From Escherichia phage IME08: a stretch of 64,000 bases of DNA. The DNA is taken from the sequence record NC_014260.1. One strand, 5' to 3'. Below, piece by piece: positions 683 to 42,875 of the stretch (its first letter is position 1; every line of letters starts with the position of its first letter). The notes beneath the pieces were generated by a model, which saw only the letters and a program-made list of their open reading frames with translations, was not told the origin of the DNA and searched no databases. The translations under genes were made by a program, and so were the position numbers.

Positions 683-1381
683 TTAGAACGAGTGGCTTGA
701 GCCTGCTTCCATAGCTAATACGTAAGAAGCTTGTGAACCTTCAAACTTAGCAGCGAAACGAGCATCTTGACCTTCACCGCGTGCCCATAGCAATACATGA
801 TAATCAGCCGGCATCATTTTCATATTAGTTTTGTTAATAATGAATTTGAATTCAGGGCCATCATGGTCTGCAACCACTAAGGAATACAACGGTCGAGTCA
901 ATTCTTTATCGTCAACTTGTTTATAACCGTTGATAACGATTTTACCATTGTCTACAGTGATAGCAAATGTATCAATACTCAGTCCAGAGGACACACGCAT
1001 CAACTGTTGATAATCTTCGGCTTTAAGGTCAAAAATAACTTCAGCCACCGGGAACGGAATAGCTTTGCTTGGGAATGCAATTGTGCTTGGGTCGGCAATA
1101 GGCCACTTAATAGTTGAACGTTGGTCTTTAATAATTAAAGTGGTTTGGTCTTCACTTACTGAAACTTCAGCACTATCGGATACCAATGACAGGATACTTA
1201 AGAAGCCATTCAAATCATAGATTGCGGCTTCGATATCAAAGGTGTCATTTACAGTAGCTTCACCATAACTGGCACCCGTTACTGAACGGGTTAGAATAGT
1301 GTTACCAGGTTTAAGCATGATACCTGGGTTAATACCGGAGAAGTTTTTCAGAATGTTCAGAGTTTCTTTAGAGAATTTCAT
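683..1381 (-). CDS. 45: Sliding clamp gp45 (DNA polymerase processivity factor)
   Basis: 232 aa, MKFSKETLNILKNFSGINPGIMLK matches T4 gp45 N-terminus and length (228 aa); synteny 46-rpbA-45-44. Confidence 0.9.
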   Translation of the reverse strand: MKFSKETLNILKNFSGINPGIMLKPGNTILTRSVTGASYGEATVNDTFDIEAAIYDLNGFLSILSLVSDSAEVSVSEDQTTLIIKDQRSTIKWPIADPSTIAFPSKAIPFPVAEVIFDLKAEDYQQLMRVSSGLSIDTFAITVDNGKIVINGYKQVDDKELTRPLYSLVVADHDGPEFKFIINKTNMKMMPADYHVLLWARGEGQDARFAAKFEGSQASYVLAMEAGSSHSF

Positions 1382-3977: not shown

Positions 3978-4215
3978 CCTTGATGCATGATTCAGCCATA
4001 TGAATTAATGTTTCTGGAGTATCATCTACCATTACATTAAAGCTAAATTCCACAGCCCAATCAGTGAAAACATAAACCTTTACGACATCTTCGCTTTCAC
4101 CGTCAGTACAGCCTTCGAACCAGAATTTAATGATTGAAGGATTGCCATCGTCGTCAATAACCATACAATCATGTTTAAAGCATAATCCTGATTTTTTGAA
4201 TTCATCTAAAGTCAT
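3952..4215 (-). CDS. Hypothetical protein (46.2-like position)
   Basis: 87-aa ORF, start overlaps the gene 47 stop. Confidence 0.45.
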   Translation of the reverse strand: MTLDEFKKSGLCFKHDCMVIDDDGNPSIIKFWFEGCTDGESEDVVKVYVFTDWAVEFSFNVMVDDTPETLIHMAESCIKDAYNDENV

Positions 4216-5234
4216 CGTGTAACCTCATTATAAAGTTGTGCAGCCATAGTCTTAAGGGCTTTAACATCGTCTTCAGTGTGGCCATCAGGAAGGGCGTCGA
4301 TATAATCATACATCATATCCAAGAGGGACTTAACTTCATCTTCCTCTTCAGAATCATCGATATCAACACTGTTATCTACCTTAGACACGATACGTAAAGA
4401 ATGGACGACCTTTTCAAGCTCTGATTCGAACTTAGTAAGGCCATCATCGATTTTATCGACTATAACACGAACTGCAATATTTGTAAAATCTTTGTAATCG
4501 ATAGTCGCGTTAGGATAATGAATCTTACGGTGCCAACAGGTTTCATTGATGACGAAATCCATTGTATGGGTTTCTGTATCGAAAATCCAGAAGCCGCGAG
4601 GGTCGTTTTCATCACCTGCAGTCAGGGTCCATGGCGTACCAATATACTTAACGTTTGCTGCATCAGAAATAGTGTGGAAGTGGCCTGACCAAACTTGCTT
4701 ATACCTCTTAAGGAAATCAGGTTCTAAACCATGAGATTTCATTCCTTTATAGAAATAGAAACCATTTAATTCCCAGTGACCTATACAGAAATCTGCTGTA
4801 GTATTTTTGATATGGTCCATGATATCAGTAGTGTTTTCTTCACACATCCATGGAATCAAATCAATTTCGGTACCATCAAAGTTAACCGTAGTAGGTTTCT
4901 CAATAACCTTGATATGGTCGTATTTACCCAGAACTTCAGAAGCAGCGTTCGGAGTCAAGGTATTTTTGTAGTGTGCATCATGGTTGCCGACGACAGTATA
5001 CATGGTAATGCCGTTGGTTTTAAGCAAATCTGAAATATGTCTAGCAAATTCCATACACTTATGAGTAATTGCTTTACGAACATCAAAAATATCACCATAC
5101 TGAATCCAGACAGTGATACCATTTGCTTTAGAATAATTGATGGCATCTTTGATGCCTGCCAATTGGATGTTTTGCACCCAAGGGTCGTCGTTCTTCACTC
5201 CAAGGTGCCAGTCACCCGTATTAAGAATTTTCAT
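4212..5234 (-). CDS. 47: Recombination endonuclease subunit gp47 (Mre11/SbcD-like phosphoesterase)
   Basis: Start at MKILNTGDWHLG (metallophosphatase motif I), about 340 aa as T4 gp47 (339); GNHD motif present; synteny with 46. Confidence 0.88.
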   Translation of the reverse strand: MKILNTGDWHLGVKNDDPWVQNIQLAGIKDAINYSKANGITVWIQYGDIFDVRKAITHKCMEFARHISDLLKTNGITMYTVVGNHDAHYKNTLTPNAASEVLGKYDHIKVIEKPTTVNFDGTEIDLIPWMCEENTTDIMDHIKNTTADFCIGHWELNGFYFYKGMKSHGLEPDFLKRYKQVWSGHFHTISDAANVKYIGTPWTLTAGDENDPRGFWIFDTETHTMDFVINETCWHRKIHYPNATIDYKDFTNIAVRVIVDKIDDGLTKFESELEKVVHSLRIVSKVDNSVDIDDSEEEDEVKSLLDMMYDYIDALPDGHTEDDVKALKTMAAQLYNEVTR

Positions 5235-5838
5235 TACGTATTCGTTCCCACATTTTGGAGGCTGCTTTAGAAGCAGAGCCAGGAAGTTTACCTTTGACCC
5301 ACCCATCAGGAATATTAGATGGGTTAATCAGTTTATGTTCTATTCCGTTATTATACCACTTCCTGCCCTTATTATGACTAGATGCTTTATAATTAGGTGA
5401 ACGACCTTCTACATATCCTTCGGGGACTGTAGGTGCAAAGGTTTGTTCTAATGTAACAGGATTATAGGAATGAATATACCCTTTAGCATTATGAGAGCCG
5501 TAAAGAGGGTGTTGCTCTTTAGGTAGCGAAAGCCCAAAGAATCCTTTAGGAGCTGCGACAGCCCTATTAAAGAATAGAGGATTTTGGGCTGCATCGGTTC
5601 TTAACTGGTACATTCTTTCAGCTTCTAAAGCCTCTTCTCTTGTAGGGTGTTCACTTACAATACATGAGTCAAATAATTCTGGATGCTCTAAAAGCTCATT
5701 TTTATAGATTTCTTTATATGCTTTAGAAAGGACACTCCCGTGATATCCTTTTAAATGCTTCTCTAAAGTGGTAGACCCTATATAAAACGGTGGAAGCTTA
5801 GTCCCGGAATATATTGTCAGGTATGTGATGTATTTCAT
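5221..5838 (-). CDS. Putative homing endonuclease (GIY-YIG-like N-terminus, WYNNG-type C-terminal motif)
   Basis: 205 aa; N-terminal LTIYSG...FYIGST...KHLKG resembles GIY-(8-10 aa)-YIG; C-terminal GRKWYNNGIEHK...IPDGWVKG resembles DNA-binding modules of phage homing endonucleases; occupies the locus where T4 carries alpha-gt. Confidence 0.45.
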   Translation of the reverse strand: MKYITYLTIYSGTKLPPFYIGSTTLEKHLKGYHGSVLSKAYKEIYKNELLEHPELFDSCIVSEHPTREEALEAERMYQLRTDAAQNPLFFNRAVAAPKGFFGLSLPKEQHPLYGSHNAKGYIHSYNPVTLEQTFAPTVPEGYVEGRSPNYKASSHNKGRKWYNNGIEHKLINPSNIPDGWVKGKLPGSASKAASKMWERIRNENS

Positions 5839-6607: not shown

Positions 6608-6838
6608 TTAATCCTTTGGAGTCAATTCAATAGTGAAGTAGAAATTAGCGTTCTCAACATGATAACGATAATCTACGTTATTGTCAGGAGAAGTGAATTC
6701 AATATTCCTGACGTTAAGTGGGTCAATATCAATAGGAAGGCCTTTAACATCCCGTAATATCAATTTAATAAAATAAGGGAGTGCTTCGAAGTCTTCCATT
6801 CCATCTAAAAGTGGAGTGATATTAATCTGATGTTCCAT
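6608..6838 (-). CDS. Hypothetical protein
   Basis: Track ORF 6608-6874 begins with a non-ATG codon; first ATG at 6838, slightly overlapping the gene 55 end. Confidence 0.4.
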
Positions 6839-7379
6839 ATAAAAAATCCAGTTCACCGACTTTAGGTTCGGCACTCTTATCAGACCCTGGTGCTTTAGTT
6901 AAAGAGGTTTCATACTGAGTCATTTTGTCGTAGATATCTTGGATAAAGGTTTCATCTGCGATACCTACCATGTCGTCATCATTACTGTCATAGACGTTAT
7001 GGACGAAGTAGCTATATTTCTTTGCCATTTCTTTACGTTCTTTTTTGATACGCTGAACGAAGGCATTAAAACAAGCCATAGTGATATATGCATGTGGGTT
7101 GTCGTATTTTGTTTCGTCGAAGTTGTGAAGACCTTTAATCGAAGCTTCGATTCCATCAGCAATCATTTCTTGCTTCCAAGATTGGGTATATCCTGAGAAG
7201 TTGAAACGTTTACTTAGTCCTTCAGCAATGAGCATAATAGCCAAGCCAATAACGTCGTTCTGGCGAACTATTTTATTAGGATCAGTATTTTCTCTGAGCT
7301 CTGTTTTCCATTGGGTAATAGCTTTCAGAAGCTCCTTATTATTTACATAGTTATTTTTAGTCAGTTTAATTTCGGTCAT
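6822..7379 (-). CDS. 55: Late-transcription sigma factor gp55
   Basis: 185 aa, same length as T4 gp55; near-identical core [13 protein letters not shown]...[57 protein letters not shown]. Confidence 0.92.
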
Positions 7380-10664: not shown

Positions 10665-11138
10665 TCATTTAAGCGATTTCCTCAGTTGTTTTTTAAACGA
10701 ATCGACCATTTGTTTCTTAGTAGCAGATTCATTATAAGTCATTCCATGTGAAAGCATTTCAGCAATCATTTCTTCCTTACCCAACCTGCTGAACTCTTTG
10801 GTTTTATCGGGAACGAAATTAGGATGAATATTGTTTTCAGTATAATCAGCTTTCAGATAGACCAGCAAATTCTCTAACCATTCGAGGTAGTCAACGTTTT
10901 GACCTTTAAGACCAGAACGGTTGAACTTATGCTTCATTTGTCCTTCTGCAGCATTGCACAGGTTACATAGTAAACCACGAACCTTACCGGCTTTTGGCCC
11001 GTTTAACTCGTGGTCGTGGTCAAGGTGGTTACTTTGAACATCAGGGTTTAATTCACGTTTACAAATCAAACACTTACCACATTGTGCATCATAAAGTTTT
11101 TGTTTTTCTTCTTTGTATAATTTGCCGGTCAACAACAT
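10665..11138 (-). CDS. 49: Endonuclease VII (Holliday-junction resolvase) gp49
   Basis: 157 aa, identical length to T4 gp49 and near-identical sequence MLLTGKLYKEEKQK.YDAQ.GKCLIC.RELNPDVQ.NHLDHDHELNGPKAGKVRGLLCNLCNAAEGQMKHKF. Confidence 0.93.
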   Translation of the reverse strand: MLLTGKLYKEEKQKLYDAQCGKCLICKRELNPDVQSNHLDHDHELNGPKAGKVRGLLCNLCNAAEGQMKHKFNRSGLKGQNVDYLEWLENLLVYLKADYTENNIHPNFVPDKTKEFSRLGKEEMIAEMLSHGMTYNESATKKQMVDSFKKQLRKSLK

Positions 11139-11270
11139 AATAAACCCTTACCATTATTAGATAAGGGTATTTATTAATATCCTAATAGTTTAGCAGTGCA
11201 ACTTAGCACTAACAACAATCCGAATAAAACAACTCCTACCCAAAATACCGTAATAAGAGCATCCATATCA

Positions 11271-27137: not shown

Positions 27138-27437
27138 TTAGAAAGAACCAGAACCTTTAATTGTGTTCTGGCGACCTTTATTTTCTAATTCAGAGTGGTC
27201 GATTTCATATGCTTGTGCTACGCCAAAGGCCTTTTTAACTTTAGCTAAAGAACCTTTAGATGTAACAATATTAAAGGTATTGCCTTTGGTAAAATCAACC
27301 AAATCGACTTGTACACCCTGTTTACCGAGGCTTGCTACAATAGCATCAACATATTCTTGGTCTAAATTGCCTTGAACTCCAATTTGAAATGCTTTAGGAG
27401 CTTTGGCTTCTGTAATAAATTCTTGATAAGTTTTCAT
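27138..27437 (-). CDS. ipII: Internal head protein (IPII-like) with capsid targeting sequence
   Basis: 99 aa; N-terminal MKTYQEFITEA capsid targeting sequence; position next to denV and e. Confidence 0.7.
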   Translation of the reverse strand: MKTYQEFITEAKAPKAFQIGVQGNLDQEYVDAIVASLGKQGVQVDLVDFTKGNTFNIVTSKGSLAKVKKAFGVAQAYEIDHSELENKGRQNTIKGSGSF

Positions 27438-27956: not shown

Positions 27957-28259
27957 TTATTTACCTTTAATTGCTTTAGCTGCTTCGGTAGCCGCTTGCT
28001 GAAGGTCATCCATAGACATACCAAACTTAGAAGCAAAGTTATCAATTTTCTTTTCGACAGAATTCAAAGGCTTGGCCTGTTTACCTTCATTAGCGCCCGG
28101 GAGAGCGAGAATACGCTCTTTGTCAATATAAAGGCTTACAAGTTTCTTACGGTCTTTATCTGGCAAATCATGAAATGAATGGGCCTTTTTATTTACAGCG
28201 GCTTCTAATTTACCTGCGGTTACGCGGGCTTCAGTGATAAATTCATTATAAGTTTTCAT
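27957..28259 (-). CDS. Internal head protein with capsid targeting sequence
   Basis: 100 aa, N-terminal [11 protein letters not shown]; lies between denV and e where T4 carries ipIII. Confidence 0.65.
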
Positions 28260-28740
28260 ATGCTTTCCAAGTACCTGTTTTAAATGTTGAAATCACGCGC
28301 TTAGCACGATTAGGAGTTTGTTTATACCAACGGGATTGAGCCAGGTTAACTGCCGCATCGTCCCAACGTTTCTGTTGGAGCATACGTAAAGAGTTAGTGA
28401 ACCCAGCTACACCTGCTTCACCCATCTGGAAGACCATGTTAATTAAAGCACAACGACGAACTTCGTCCAGTACATCATAAACAGGTTTCAATTTAGGATT
28501 ACGCAGAATAGCTCTACGAGCATTTTCAACCGATCGGTTAAAGAGTTGTTCAGCTTCAGCCATAGTAATACGACCGTTGCAAACCCGGCCCATAAGCTTA
28601 TCAAGTTCGGCACGAGCAACATCTTTTGAAGGGTTTTTGGTAATCAACTGGCCAATCCCAATAGTCCAATAACCTTCGGTGTCTTTATAAAGATTTAAAT
28701 CAAGACCTTCGTCTTGACGTAACATATCAAAAATATCCAT
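28246..28740 (-). CDS. e: Lysozyme (endolysin) e, glycoside hydrolase family 24
   Basis: 164 aa, same length as T4 lysozyme; [35 protein letters not shown]...[32 protein letters not shown]. Confidence 0.93.
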
Positions 28741-28742
28741 AA

Positions 28743-28771
28743 TACCTCCTGAGTATAGGAGGTATTTATAT
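28743..28771 (-). promoter_or_regulatory. SD-sequestering hairpin plus late promoter for gene e
   Basis: 8-bp inverted repeat (UACCUCCU / AGGAGGUA) pairs the SD of e; minus-strand TATAAATA abuts and overlaps the 5' arm. Confidence 0.6.
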
Positions 28772-29220
28772 CAAAAGAGCGAATCTAAAACCTTAAACAT
28801 CGACTTACCCATGACATATTCCCATTGTGGACGTTTAATCAAGGCAAACGCATCGAATTCAGGAATCGTGCGACCGTCAGGGAACGTATGGTAAGCCGTA
28901 CATTTGCAATTCTTGAACTGCTCGTGTTCCACAGGCACCGTATATAAGAACAGATGTAGATTCTTATTGCTTGAATATTTGAACTCACCTAGGTCTTTCA
29001 GGAACGCAGGATCGTATGCTGTGAATCCAATCTCTTCTTCGGTTTCACGCATTGCCGCTTGAATAGGCTCTTCGCCTGGTTCGACATGACCTTTAGGAAT
29101 GTCCCATTTATGACGCATATTCTCTGGATTACGAGAGCCTGTTACACGCCCCATGACCAGTTCTTTATCAACAGTCATGAACAAAATACCTGCCGATAAT
29201 TCCTTAGCTTTCTTACTCAT
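28771..29220 (-). CDS. nudE: Nudix hydrolase NudE
   Basis: Nudix box GHVEPGEEPIQAAMRETEEEIGF; start set at MSKKAKEL (about 150 aa, T4 NudE 151); position next to e. Confidence 0.75.
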   Translation of the reverse strand: MSKKAKELSAGILFMTVDKELVMGRVTGSRNPENMRHKWDIPKGHVEPGEEPIQAAMRETEEEIGFTAYDPAFLKDLGEFKYSSNKNLHLFLYTVPVEHEQFKNCKCTAYHTFPDGRTIPEFDAFALIKRPQWEYVMGKSMFKVLDSLF

Positions 29221-36548: not shown

Positions 36549-37166
36549 TTATTTACGGGTCTTTTCGAACTGGGCCGCGTCACCAGCCAGACGACGAGCT
36601 TGACGAAGTTTGTTGTCGATTTCTTCGCGCATAGGCTGGGTATACTTAAGGCCTTCAACCGTCAGATAGAGGCGATAAAGGTCTGGGGTGTCTAGGTTGT
36701 TAATGTGCTGTCCGTTACGAAGAGTATTGAATTCACGAACAAGGTGTTTAGTTTCGGATTCGATTTCAGAAACCAAAGAAGCCAGTTGATTATATTTTTT
36801 AACTATAGTGCTGGTGTCAAACTTGATTTTAGGTTTAGGAGCTTCTTTTACCGGTTCGGCTTTAGGCGTCGGTTTCGGCGCTGCAACTTTGGCCTGGGCT
36901 GCAGGTTTAGCAACAGGAGCTTTAGCTGGTTTAGCAGGCTTAGTAGCGCCGCCAGCTACGATATCTTTAAAAGCTTTAGAAGCTTTGTAATATTCTTTCT
37001 GGTTACTAGTATCAAAACCATACATATCATAAACGTTTTTAAAGAATTCGGTGGTGGTTTTAGTCCCAGAAATTTTATCATAAGCCGCTTGCCACATATC
37101 TTTAGTCATGCGGACGCCGGCTTCGGTCAGAACGCTTTCGTTCAAAAATTCATTGTAAGTTTTCAT
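36549..37166 (-). CDS. Internal head protein (IPIII-like, basic Lys/Ala/Pro-rich) with capsid targeting sequence
   Basis: 205 aa; N-terminal [11 protein letters not shown]; Ala/Lys/Pro-rich basic middle region; its own late promoter upstream. Confidence 0.6.
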   Translation of the reverse strand: MKTYNEFLNESVLTEAGVRMTKDMWQAAYDKISGTKTTTEFFKNVYDMYGFDTSNQKEYYKASKAFKDIVAGGATKPAKPAKAPVAKPAAQAKVAAPKPTPKAEPVKEAPKPKIKFDTSTIVKKYNQLASLVSEIESETKHLVREFNTLRNGQHINNLDTPDLYRLYLTVEGLKYTQPMREEIDNKLRQARRLAGDAAQFEKTRK

Positions 37167-37401: not shown

Positions 37402-37477
37402 TGGCCGAGACAGTAGGGATCGAACCTACGACCCAGGACTTAGAAGGTCCTTGCTCTTCCTTCTGAGCTATGCCTCG
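37402..37477 (-). tRNA. tRNA-Arg (anticodon UCU)
   Basis: 76 nt cloverleaf folded by hand: acceptor CGAGGCA/TGTCTCG, D-stem GCTC/GAGC, anticodon stem AGGAC/GTCCT with loop CTTCTAA, T-arm GTAGG-TTCGATC-CCTAC, encoded CCA. Confidence 0.8.
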
Positions 37478-37481
37478 TATT

Positions 37482-37556
37482 TGGCGGACATGCATGGATT
37501 CGAACCATGGACCAATTGATTAACAGTCAACTGCTCTACCACTGAGCTACACATCC
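37482..37556 (-). tRNA. tRNA-Asn (anticodon GUU)
   Basis: 75 nt: acceptor GGATGTG/CATGTCC (two G-U pairs), D-arm GCTC-AGTGGTA-GAGC, anticodon loop CTGTTAA, T-arm CATGG-TTCGAAT-CCATG, encoded CCA. Confidence 0.75.
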
Positions 37557-37560
37557 AAAT

Positions 37561-37634
37561 TGGTGGCCCTGGGTGGAATCGAACCACCATCCAGCGATTA
37601 TGAGTCGCTCGCTTGACCGTCCAGCTACAGGGCC
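37561..37634 (-). tRNA. tRNA with CAU anticodon (Ile2/lysidine-type or Met)
   Basis: 74 nt: acceptor GGCCCTG/CAGGGCC, anticodon arm AGCGA-CTCATAA-TCGCT, T-arm GGTGG-TTCGATT-CCACC, encoded CCA; anticodon arm resembles bacterial tRNA-Ile2. Confidence 0.7.
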
Positions 37635-42829: not shown

Positions 42830-42840
42830 AGTCGCCTCCT

Positions 42841-42848
42841 TATAAATA
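42841..42848 (+). promoter_or_regulatory. Late promoter (TATAAATA) for gene 53 and the baseplate operon
   Basis: Plus-strand TATAAATA 28 nt upstream of the gene 53 ATG, SD GGAGG in between. Confidence 0.6.
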
Positions 42849-42875
42849 TTAATATTATTTATACTCGGAGGCCCT

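Follow-up and report, generated by a model that had tools for sequence, protein, structure and literature searches.

The T4-type lysozyme gene e of Escherichia phage IME08 lies on the minus strand of the 64,000-nucleotide stretch of NC_014260.1 analysed here, which we call the window. Its start codon, ATG at 28740, is preceded by a short leader that separates it from the upstream Nudix hydrolase gene nudE (T4 e.1), a gene of early type. Over its full length (163 residues) the e product shares 76% identity with T4 lysozyme, its best PDB matches are all T4 lysozyme (best E = 1.8e-82), and Glu11, Asp20 and Thr26 are in place. The gene order nudE, e, IpII, denV, read from an identical GenBank record, is that of T4, and judged by its sequence the gene is a true ortholog of T4 e. 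The region is 100% identical to that of Enterobacteria phage vB_EcoM_IME341 (Straboviridae, Tevenvirinae, Dhakavirus, JS98 group). The annotation of MH051917, an identical GenBank record, agrees with our nudE call; no regulatory feature is marked at the e leader in the GenBank entry for the identical phage. Two genes of the late-transcription machinery, 45 and 55, are also present in the window (Table 1), and the role of gp45 in late transcription has been described (PMC2988020).

Several other features of the window were recorded. Between gp47 (4212-5306) and gp55 lies an HNH homing-endonuclease ORF (5221-5838, minus strand; phrog_10820, E = 1.5e-92). Its overlap with the 5' end of the longest gp47 ORF is 86 nt, and it is likely a mobile insertion relative to T4. 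Three minus-strand ORFs, at 27138-27437, at 27957-28259 and in the gene starting at 37166, begin with MKTY(N/Q)EF(I/L), which resembles the capsid-targeting N-terminus of T4 internal proteins. The second of these matches the internal virion protein family phrog_7857, and the third, a 205-residue ORF, is preceded by a TATAAATA (37202-37195) that lies 28 nt from its start. Three tRNA genes are clustered at 37405-37634 on the minus strand. In an Rfam search of the whole window only three tRNAs reached gathering scores, and no cis-regulatory family was reported at the e leader.

Table 1. Positions of the e leader elements, the neighbouring and late-transcription genes, and the two comparable leaders in the window.
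Feature	Position	Strand	Basis or detail
Gene 45, sliding clamp, late-transcription activator	683..1381	-	phrog_223 DNA polymerase processivity factor, E = 2.7e-78
Gene 55, late sigma factor recognising TATAAATA, trans-acting part of the proposed switch	6822..7379	-	phrog_234, E = 8.9e-69
Leader of gene 49 (endonuclease VII, 157 aa)	11138-11175	-	box AATAAATA at 11175-11168; gene start 11138
Gene e, T4-type lysozyme (endolysin), 164 aa	28246..28740	-	phrog_7 endolysin; T4 lysozyme similarity
Hairpin 3' arm AGGAGGUAUU	28741..28750	-	folds
Hexaloop AUACUC	28751..28756	-	comparison with T4 locus L001
Predicted late transcription start, +1 = U28757, +/-1 nt	28756..28758	-	-13/-6 rule applied to the sequence
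Hairpin 5' arm AAUACCUCCU, holding the anti-SD CCUCC	28757..28766	-	folds
gp55-type late promoter box TATAAATA (-13 to -6)	28763..28770	-	exact match
nudE (Nudix hydrolase, T4 e.1)	28771..29220	-	PHROG phrog_1185 nudix hydrolase, E = 6.9e-72
gp4/gp53 intergenic palindrome, 46 nt	42830-42875	both	gp4 (head closure) start 42829, -; gp53 (baseplate wedge) start 42876, +

Read along the minus strand from 28780 to 28735, the junction is GCTCTTT TGA TATAAATACCTCCTATACTCAGGAGGTATT ATG GAT. The nudE stop codon (28773-28771) directly adjoins the late promoter box, which is spaced 22 nt from the e ATG and is the single TATAAATA in the leader. The 5' arm of the hairpin, AAUACCUCCU, lies between the box and the predicted late start, and the box overlaps it by 4 nt. 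It pairs over 10 bp with AGGAGGUAUU, the 3' arm, which contains the Shine-Dalgarno (SD) sequence AGGAGG (28750-28745) and reaches the e start codon. The initial annotation, made from the same DNA, had described an 8-bp stem, UACCUCCU/AGGAGGUA, with the SD as its 3' arm and a late promoter abutting its 5' arm. Those eight pairs are present (28764-28757 with 28750-28743) and the SD does lie in the 3' arm next to the AUG, but folding extends the stem to 10 bp; likewise the promoter box is where it was placed, but overlaps even the shorter arm by 2 nt and does not merely abut it. The late promoter of T4 is TATAAATA at -13 to -6 (PMC1524935), and with the same rule the predicted +1 here falls on the last base of the 5' arm, so that a late transcript would retain at most one of the ten arm nucleotides. 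The prediction agrees with the earlier proposal that late RNA starts inside the stem and loses the inhibitory arm.

The T4 version of this device, a leader hairpin combined with a late promoter, was reportedly worked out by McPheeters et al. in 1986 (NAR 14:5813). According to a later review, long early T4 transcripts that extend into e form an inhibitory structure, and transcripts from either of two late promoters are made without the 5' portion of that structure and are well translated (Uzan and Miller, 2010, section 29; PMC3014915). The same source states that T4 late 5' ends have been mapped to the e late promoters, and it predicts comparable leaders, with a late promoter in the DNA that encodes the 5' strand, for T4-type phages closely related to T4 (Figure 5A of PMC3014915). 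Both the mechanism in T4 and its conservation in close relatives have already been described. The IME08 leader shares with T4 the gene, the synteny and a 10-bp frame in which AAUACC(U/C)UCU... pairs with AGGAGGUAUU ending at the AUG, and in both phages TATAAATA overlaps the 5' arm and the computed opening energies are nearly identical. The differences between the two are small, one being the number of promoters. The T4 leader, which reads TTTTATAAATACCTTCTATAAATACTTAGGAGGTATTATG, has one late promoter abutting the arm and a second TATAAATA within a loop of 8-10 nt, whereas IME08 has only the first and lacks a loop promoter of the T4 type. The loop reads TATACTC here where T4 has TATAAATACTT, and is only 6 nt long. 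In the GenBank record of phage Lutter the loop box is annotated as a promoter. Two further differences are that a U.G pair in T4 is C-G in the IME08 leader, and that the distance from the nudE stop to the arm is 4 nt instead of the 7 nt found in T4. The T4 element has been tested experimentally; that of IME08 is a prediction from sequence.

As a check on its proposal, the initial annotation had suggested folding the two transcript forms, and the outcome supports it. We defined the opening cost as the free energy needed to force the region from the SD to the AUG (28750-28738) into a single-stranded state. For read-through RNAs starting 60-250 nt upstream this cost was 11.6-15.2 kcal/mol, and it dropped to 3.7-4.8 kcal/mol for RNAs starting at 28757 or 28756. 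These values are close to those of the T4 leader, for which we obtained 14.3-16.1 kcal/mol for the early form, 3.8-4.0 kcal/mol for transcripts from the first promoter and 1.2-2.3 kcal/mol for those from the second. The probability that the SD is unpaired was 0.00-0.08 in read-through RNAs of 180-310 nt. In the predicted ensemble of the late transcript the per-base values were 0.1-0.3, with the SD partly paired with codons 3-6. This pairing is weak, costing about 4 kcal/mol to open, and is no better than in shuffled sequences. Since the low late accessibility comes from such weak pairing, the opening energy is the better measure of the two.

The hairpin was compared with chance in several ways. 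The exact pattern of arm, loop and arm occurs once in the window and not at all in 100 shuffles. The 38-nt e element folds at -14.1 kcal/mol (z = -3.7), with two of 200 shuffles as good, and the hairpin survives in both the minimum free energy and the centroid structures computed in a 140-nt context. By folding energy the e leader ranks fourth among 107 crude gene starts in the window. The promoter box on its own is not enriched: eight copies of TATAAATA were found in the 64-kb window and 7.98 were expected. The count alone is therefore uninformative, and a positional test was used instead. For six of the eight boxes a real gene starts 21-28 nt after the box ends (binomial P ~2e-12), and these genes are gp53, gp4, e, one internal-protein gene and two others; the 22-nt spacing of the e box is typical of these. 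In T4 late promoters the stretch that directly follows the box is normally AT-rich (PMC2988020), and AT-rich sequence also follows the other boxes in the window, among which CCTCC is not general. The CCTCC just downstream of the e box is GC-rich, an unusual feature in a late promoter, and could make this one weaker. Because T4 and the other late promoters of the window are AT-rich at this position, CCTCC is not a promoter requirement, and its presence lends the stem support that does not depend on covariation.

We then assembled 18 e leaders (16 of them distinct), comprising T4, Lutter, ATK47, five further GenBank phages, and loci retrieved by lysozyme protein similarity only. The set includes Dhaka-, Tequatro-, Mosig-, Moon- and Gelderlandvirus phages, Serratia phage CHI14 and Klebsiella phages. 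All 18 leaders carry xATAAATA followed by an SD-sequestering stem. The string ATAAATAC is invariant throughout the alignment, the sequence upstream of the box is unalignable, and the first base of the box is T, A or G; a variable first base has been reported for late promoters of T4 relatives (PMC1524935). Stem energies range from -8.7 to -16.6 kcal/mol, no more than one of 300 shuffles being as stable, and in every leader a transcript from the predicted +1 would lack the 5' arm entirely or almost entirely. The hairpin is also kept in Klebsiella and Proteus phages, where the upstream gene is not nudE. The extent of the stem varies by lineage, with GGAG always covered. In the T4, JS98 and RB69 types the AAUA/UAUU pairs at the bottom form part of the stem, and in CC31-like and Moon-type phages the stem is instead extended upward with UAUC/GAUA.

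Evidence from covariation is thin. A register-free tally of per-sequence folds found two compensatory changes, one from U-A to C-G in VR7-like phages and one between C-G in CC31-like or Moon-type phages and A-U in CHI14, and T4 adds the difference between U.G and C-G. In a formal test on the MAFFT alignment covariation was not significant, as 78.9% of cells were paired compared with 78.3% in shuffles (113/500). The true register nevertheless stands out from slid registers, in which 39-57% of cells were paired. The thin signal can be ascribed to one arm being the SD, which hardly varies, and to indels that shift the register of the stem; for the same reason, conservation of pairing is not fully separable here from conservation of sequence.

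More distant loci with e-like lysozymes were also examined. In L024 (positions ~950-995; IMGVR_UViG_3300045988_066415, a 183-kb contig), whose lysozyme is 65% identical to the query, a stem AACCUCUUCUAAAU/AUUUUAGAGGAGGUU sequesters the SD more strongly than that of e: the 63-nt leader folds at -21.2 kcal/mol, and none of 300 shuffles was as stable. CTAAATA is a late-promoter variant reported for Aeromonas phage Aeh1 (PMC1524935), and its presence in the L024 stem suggests that the design reaches beyond close T4 relatives. In five IMG/VR contigs of 30-35 kb (L036-L040; lysozymes 40-50% identical), a (C/T)ATAAATA-like or TTAAATA string closely follows a CCTC that pairs with a GAGG SD, with weak to moderate significance (z = -1.5 to -4.0). 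Four other loci with e-like lysozymes (L026, L034, L035 and that of phage alia, L086) had no significant leader structure.

We read the leader as an orthologous copy of the T4 gene e translational switch in a JS98-type (Dhakavirus) phage, and put the probability of this reading at roughly 85%. At the level of sequence the initial annotation was right that the T4 mechanism is reproduced, as every element is present and conserved: the e ortholog, gp55, gp45, the position of the box and the predicted opening costs. Transcripts from upstream would read through nudE and carry both arms of the 10-bp hairpin. The hairpin would bury the e SD up to the AUG, so that no 30S subunit binds and no early lysozyme is made. 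After DNA replication begins, RNA polymerase with gp55, gp33 and the gp45 clamp would initiate at the TATAAATA that overlaps the arm. The resulting RNA would start at about U28757, without the anti-SD arm, and would be translated. Three of these steps are inferred from T4: read-through by early RNAs, the site at which late RNA starts, and the consequence for translation. Genes upstream of e lie on the same strand, with candidate sigma-70-like promoters such as that at 31011-30984, and a consensus terminator scan made no call between nudE and e. The candidate promoters and the lack of a terminator call make read-through into e plausible.

A different way to relieve the block would be for ribosomes terminating on nudE to melt the stem, by translational coupling, or for the RNA to be processed, with TATAAATA not operative. 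We consider this improbable. The geometry is suggestive, as the nudE stop abuts the box only 4 nt from the arm (7 nt in T4), and a modelled terminating ribosome covering the RNA to 28760 opens the SD; the usual footprint, however, which reaches 28762, leaves a 5-bp CUCCU/AGGAG stem with the SD still paired. Coupling also does not explain why ATAAATAC is invariant in 18 of 18 leaders whatever lies upstream. It is further opposed by the six of eight boxes in the window that head genes at a similar spacing, and by the T4 late 5' ends mapped to these promoters (PMC3014915). In the model, a small leak by coupling from the nudE stop could be superimposed on the e leader.

Slightly less probable still, at about one chance in twenty by our estimate, is that the hairpin serves mainly as an intrinsic terminator or 3'-end stabiliser for early nudE RNA rather than gating the translation of e. 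Its position directly 3' of the nudE stop codon would suit such a role, and in the GenBank record of ATK47 the homologous hairpin is annotated as a 'putative terminator determined with ARNold' (L003 487-523; NC_055708.1 108323-108359). The stem is not, however, followed by a U-tract, the next bases being AUGGAUAUUUUUG, and the consensus scan makes no call at the hairpin; on these two grounds the intrinsic terminator was rejected. Moreover, the 3' arm is the e SD in every lineage, the Klebsiella and Proteus phages keep the hairpin behind an upstream gene other than nudE, and T4 is reported to make longer early transcripts that run into e (PMC3014915). The ATK47 label is probably a misannotation, in view of the conserved arrangement of promoter and SD and the absence of a U-tract.

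Least probable of all is that the complementarity arises only from the proximity of an A/T-rich promoter to a strong SD and has no regulatory role: the non-significant covariation statistics and the chance-level motif count would fit it, but the pattern was expected zero times and found once, it is kept in 16 distinct leaders with differing stem extents, CCTCC is not a general feature of the other late promoters in the window, and pairing reaches 78.9% in the true register against 39-57% in slid ones.

The proposed e switch has known counterparts of unrelated sequence. In T4 I-TevI and soc, and in Aeh1 mobE (Gibb and Edgell, cited in PMC3014915), the logic is the same: the ribosome-binding site is sequestered in early or middle read-through RNA, and a late promoter close to the structure gives a translatable RNA, as proposed for e, although the genes and sequences are unrelated to it. 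T4 gene 49, encoding endonuclease VII, is also listed among cases with an inhibitory structure at the translation initiation region (PMC3014915). In the gene 49 leader of the window (Table 1), the SD is buried by a 9-bp stem, ACCCUUAUC/GGUAAGGGU, and the AUG is covered by additional pairs. The folding energy is -15.1 kcal/mol, pairing probability averages 0.97 over the SD zone, and the predicted +1 is near 11162. This leader of the T4 gene 49 type follows the same logic as e, but with a different stem sequence, an AAGGG-type SD and a longer helix over the AUG.

A third case is a palindrome between the divergent genes gp4 and gp53, which reads GCCTCC-TTATAAATA-TTAATAT-TATTTATA-CTCGGAGGC. It contains one TATAAATA per strand (42841-42848 on the plus strand and 42863-42856 on the minus strand), and the SD of gp4 complements the anti-SD of gp53 and vice versa. 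On either strand, read-through RNA buries the SD in a fold of about -19 kcal/mol, and the predicted start of each late transcript lies within the palindrome. T4, a Jiaodavirus and a Mosigvirus share this arrangement, and we found no description of it in the searchable literature. In total, four of the nine gene-heading xATAAATA boxes in the 64-kb window (those of e, gene 49, gp4 and gp53) place an anti-SD beside the box. It is conceivable, though we think it rather unlikely, that the e leader is one instance of a more general design shared by these four genes, in which only transcripts from late promoters are translatable and the gp4/gp53 palindrome serves both divergent genes. If that were true, the palindrome would silence read-through or antisense RNA arriving from either direction. 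It may also be a mere geometric by-product of two overlapping divergent promoters.

The initial annotation had gone on to conclude that control of lysis timing is probably conserved, which overstates what the hairpin would do: it would prevent early synthesis of lysozyme and does not set the lysis clock. Lysis timing in T4 is set by the holin T and the antiholin RI, not by the availability of lysozyme. Beyond annotation the finding at the e leader has little significance. In practical terms, edits within 28741-28770 made for phage engineering would hit the promoter, the anti-SD and the SD together. For the JS98/Dhakavirus lineage, the reading that we favour would mean that the classic T4 means of holding back lysozyme until late in infection is still intact, though simplified to a single promoter.
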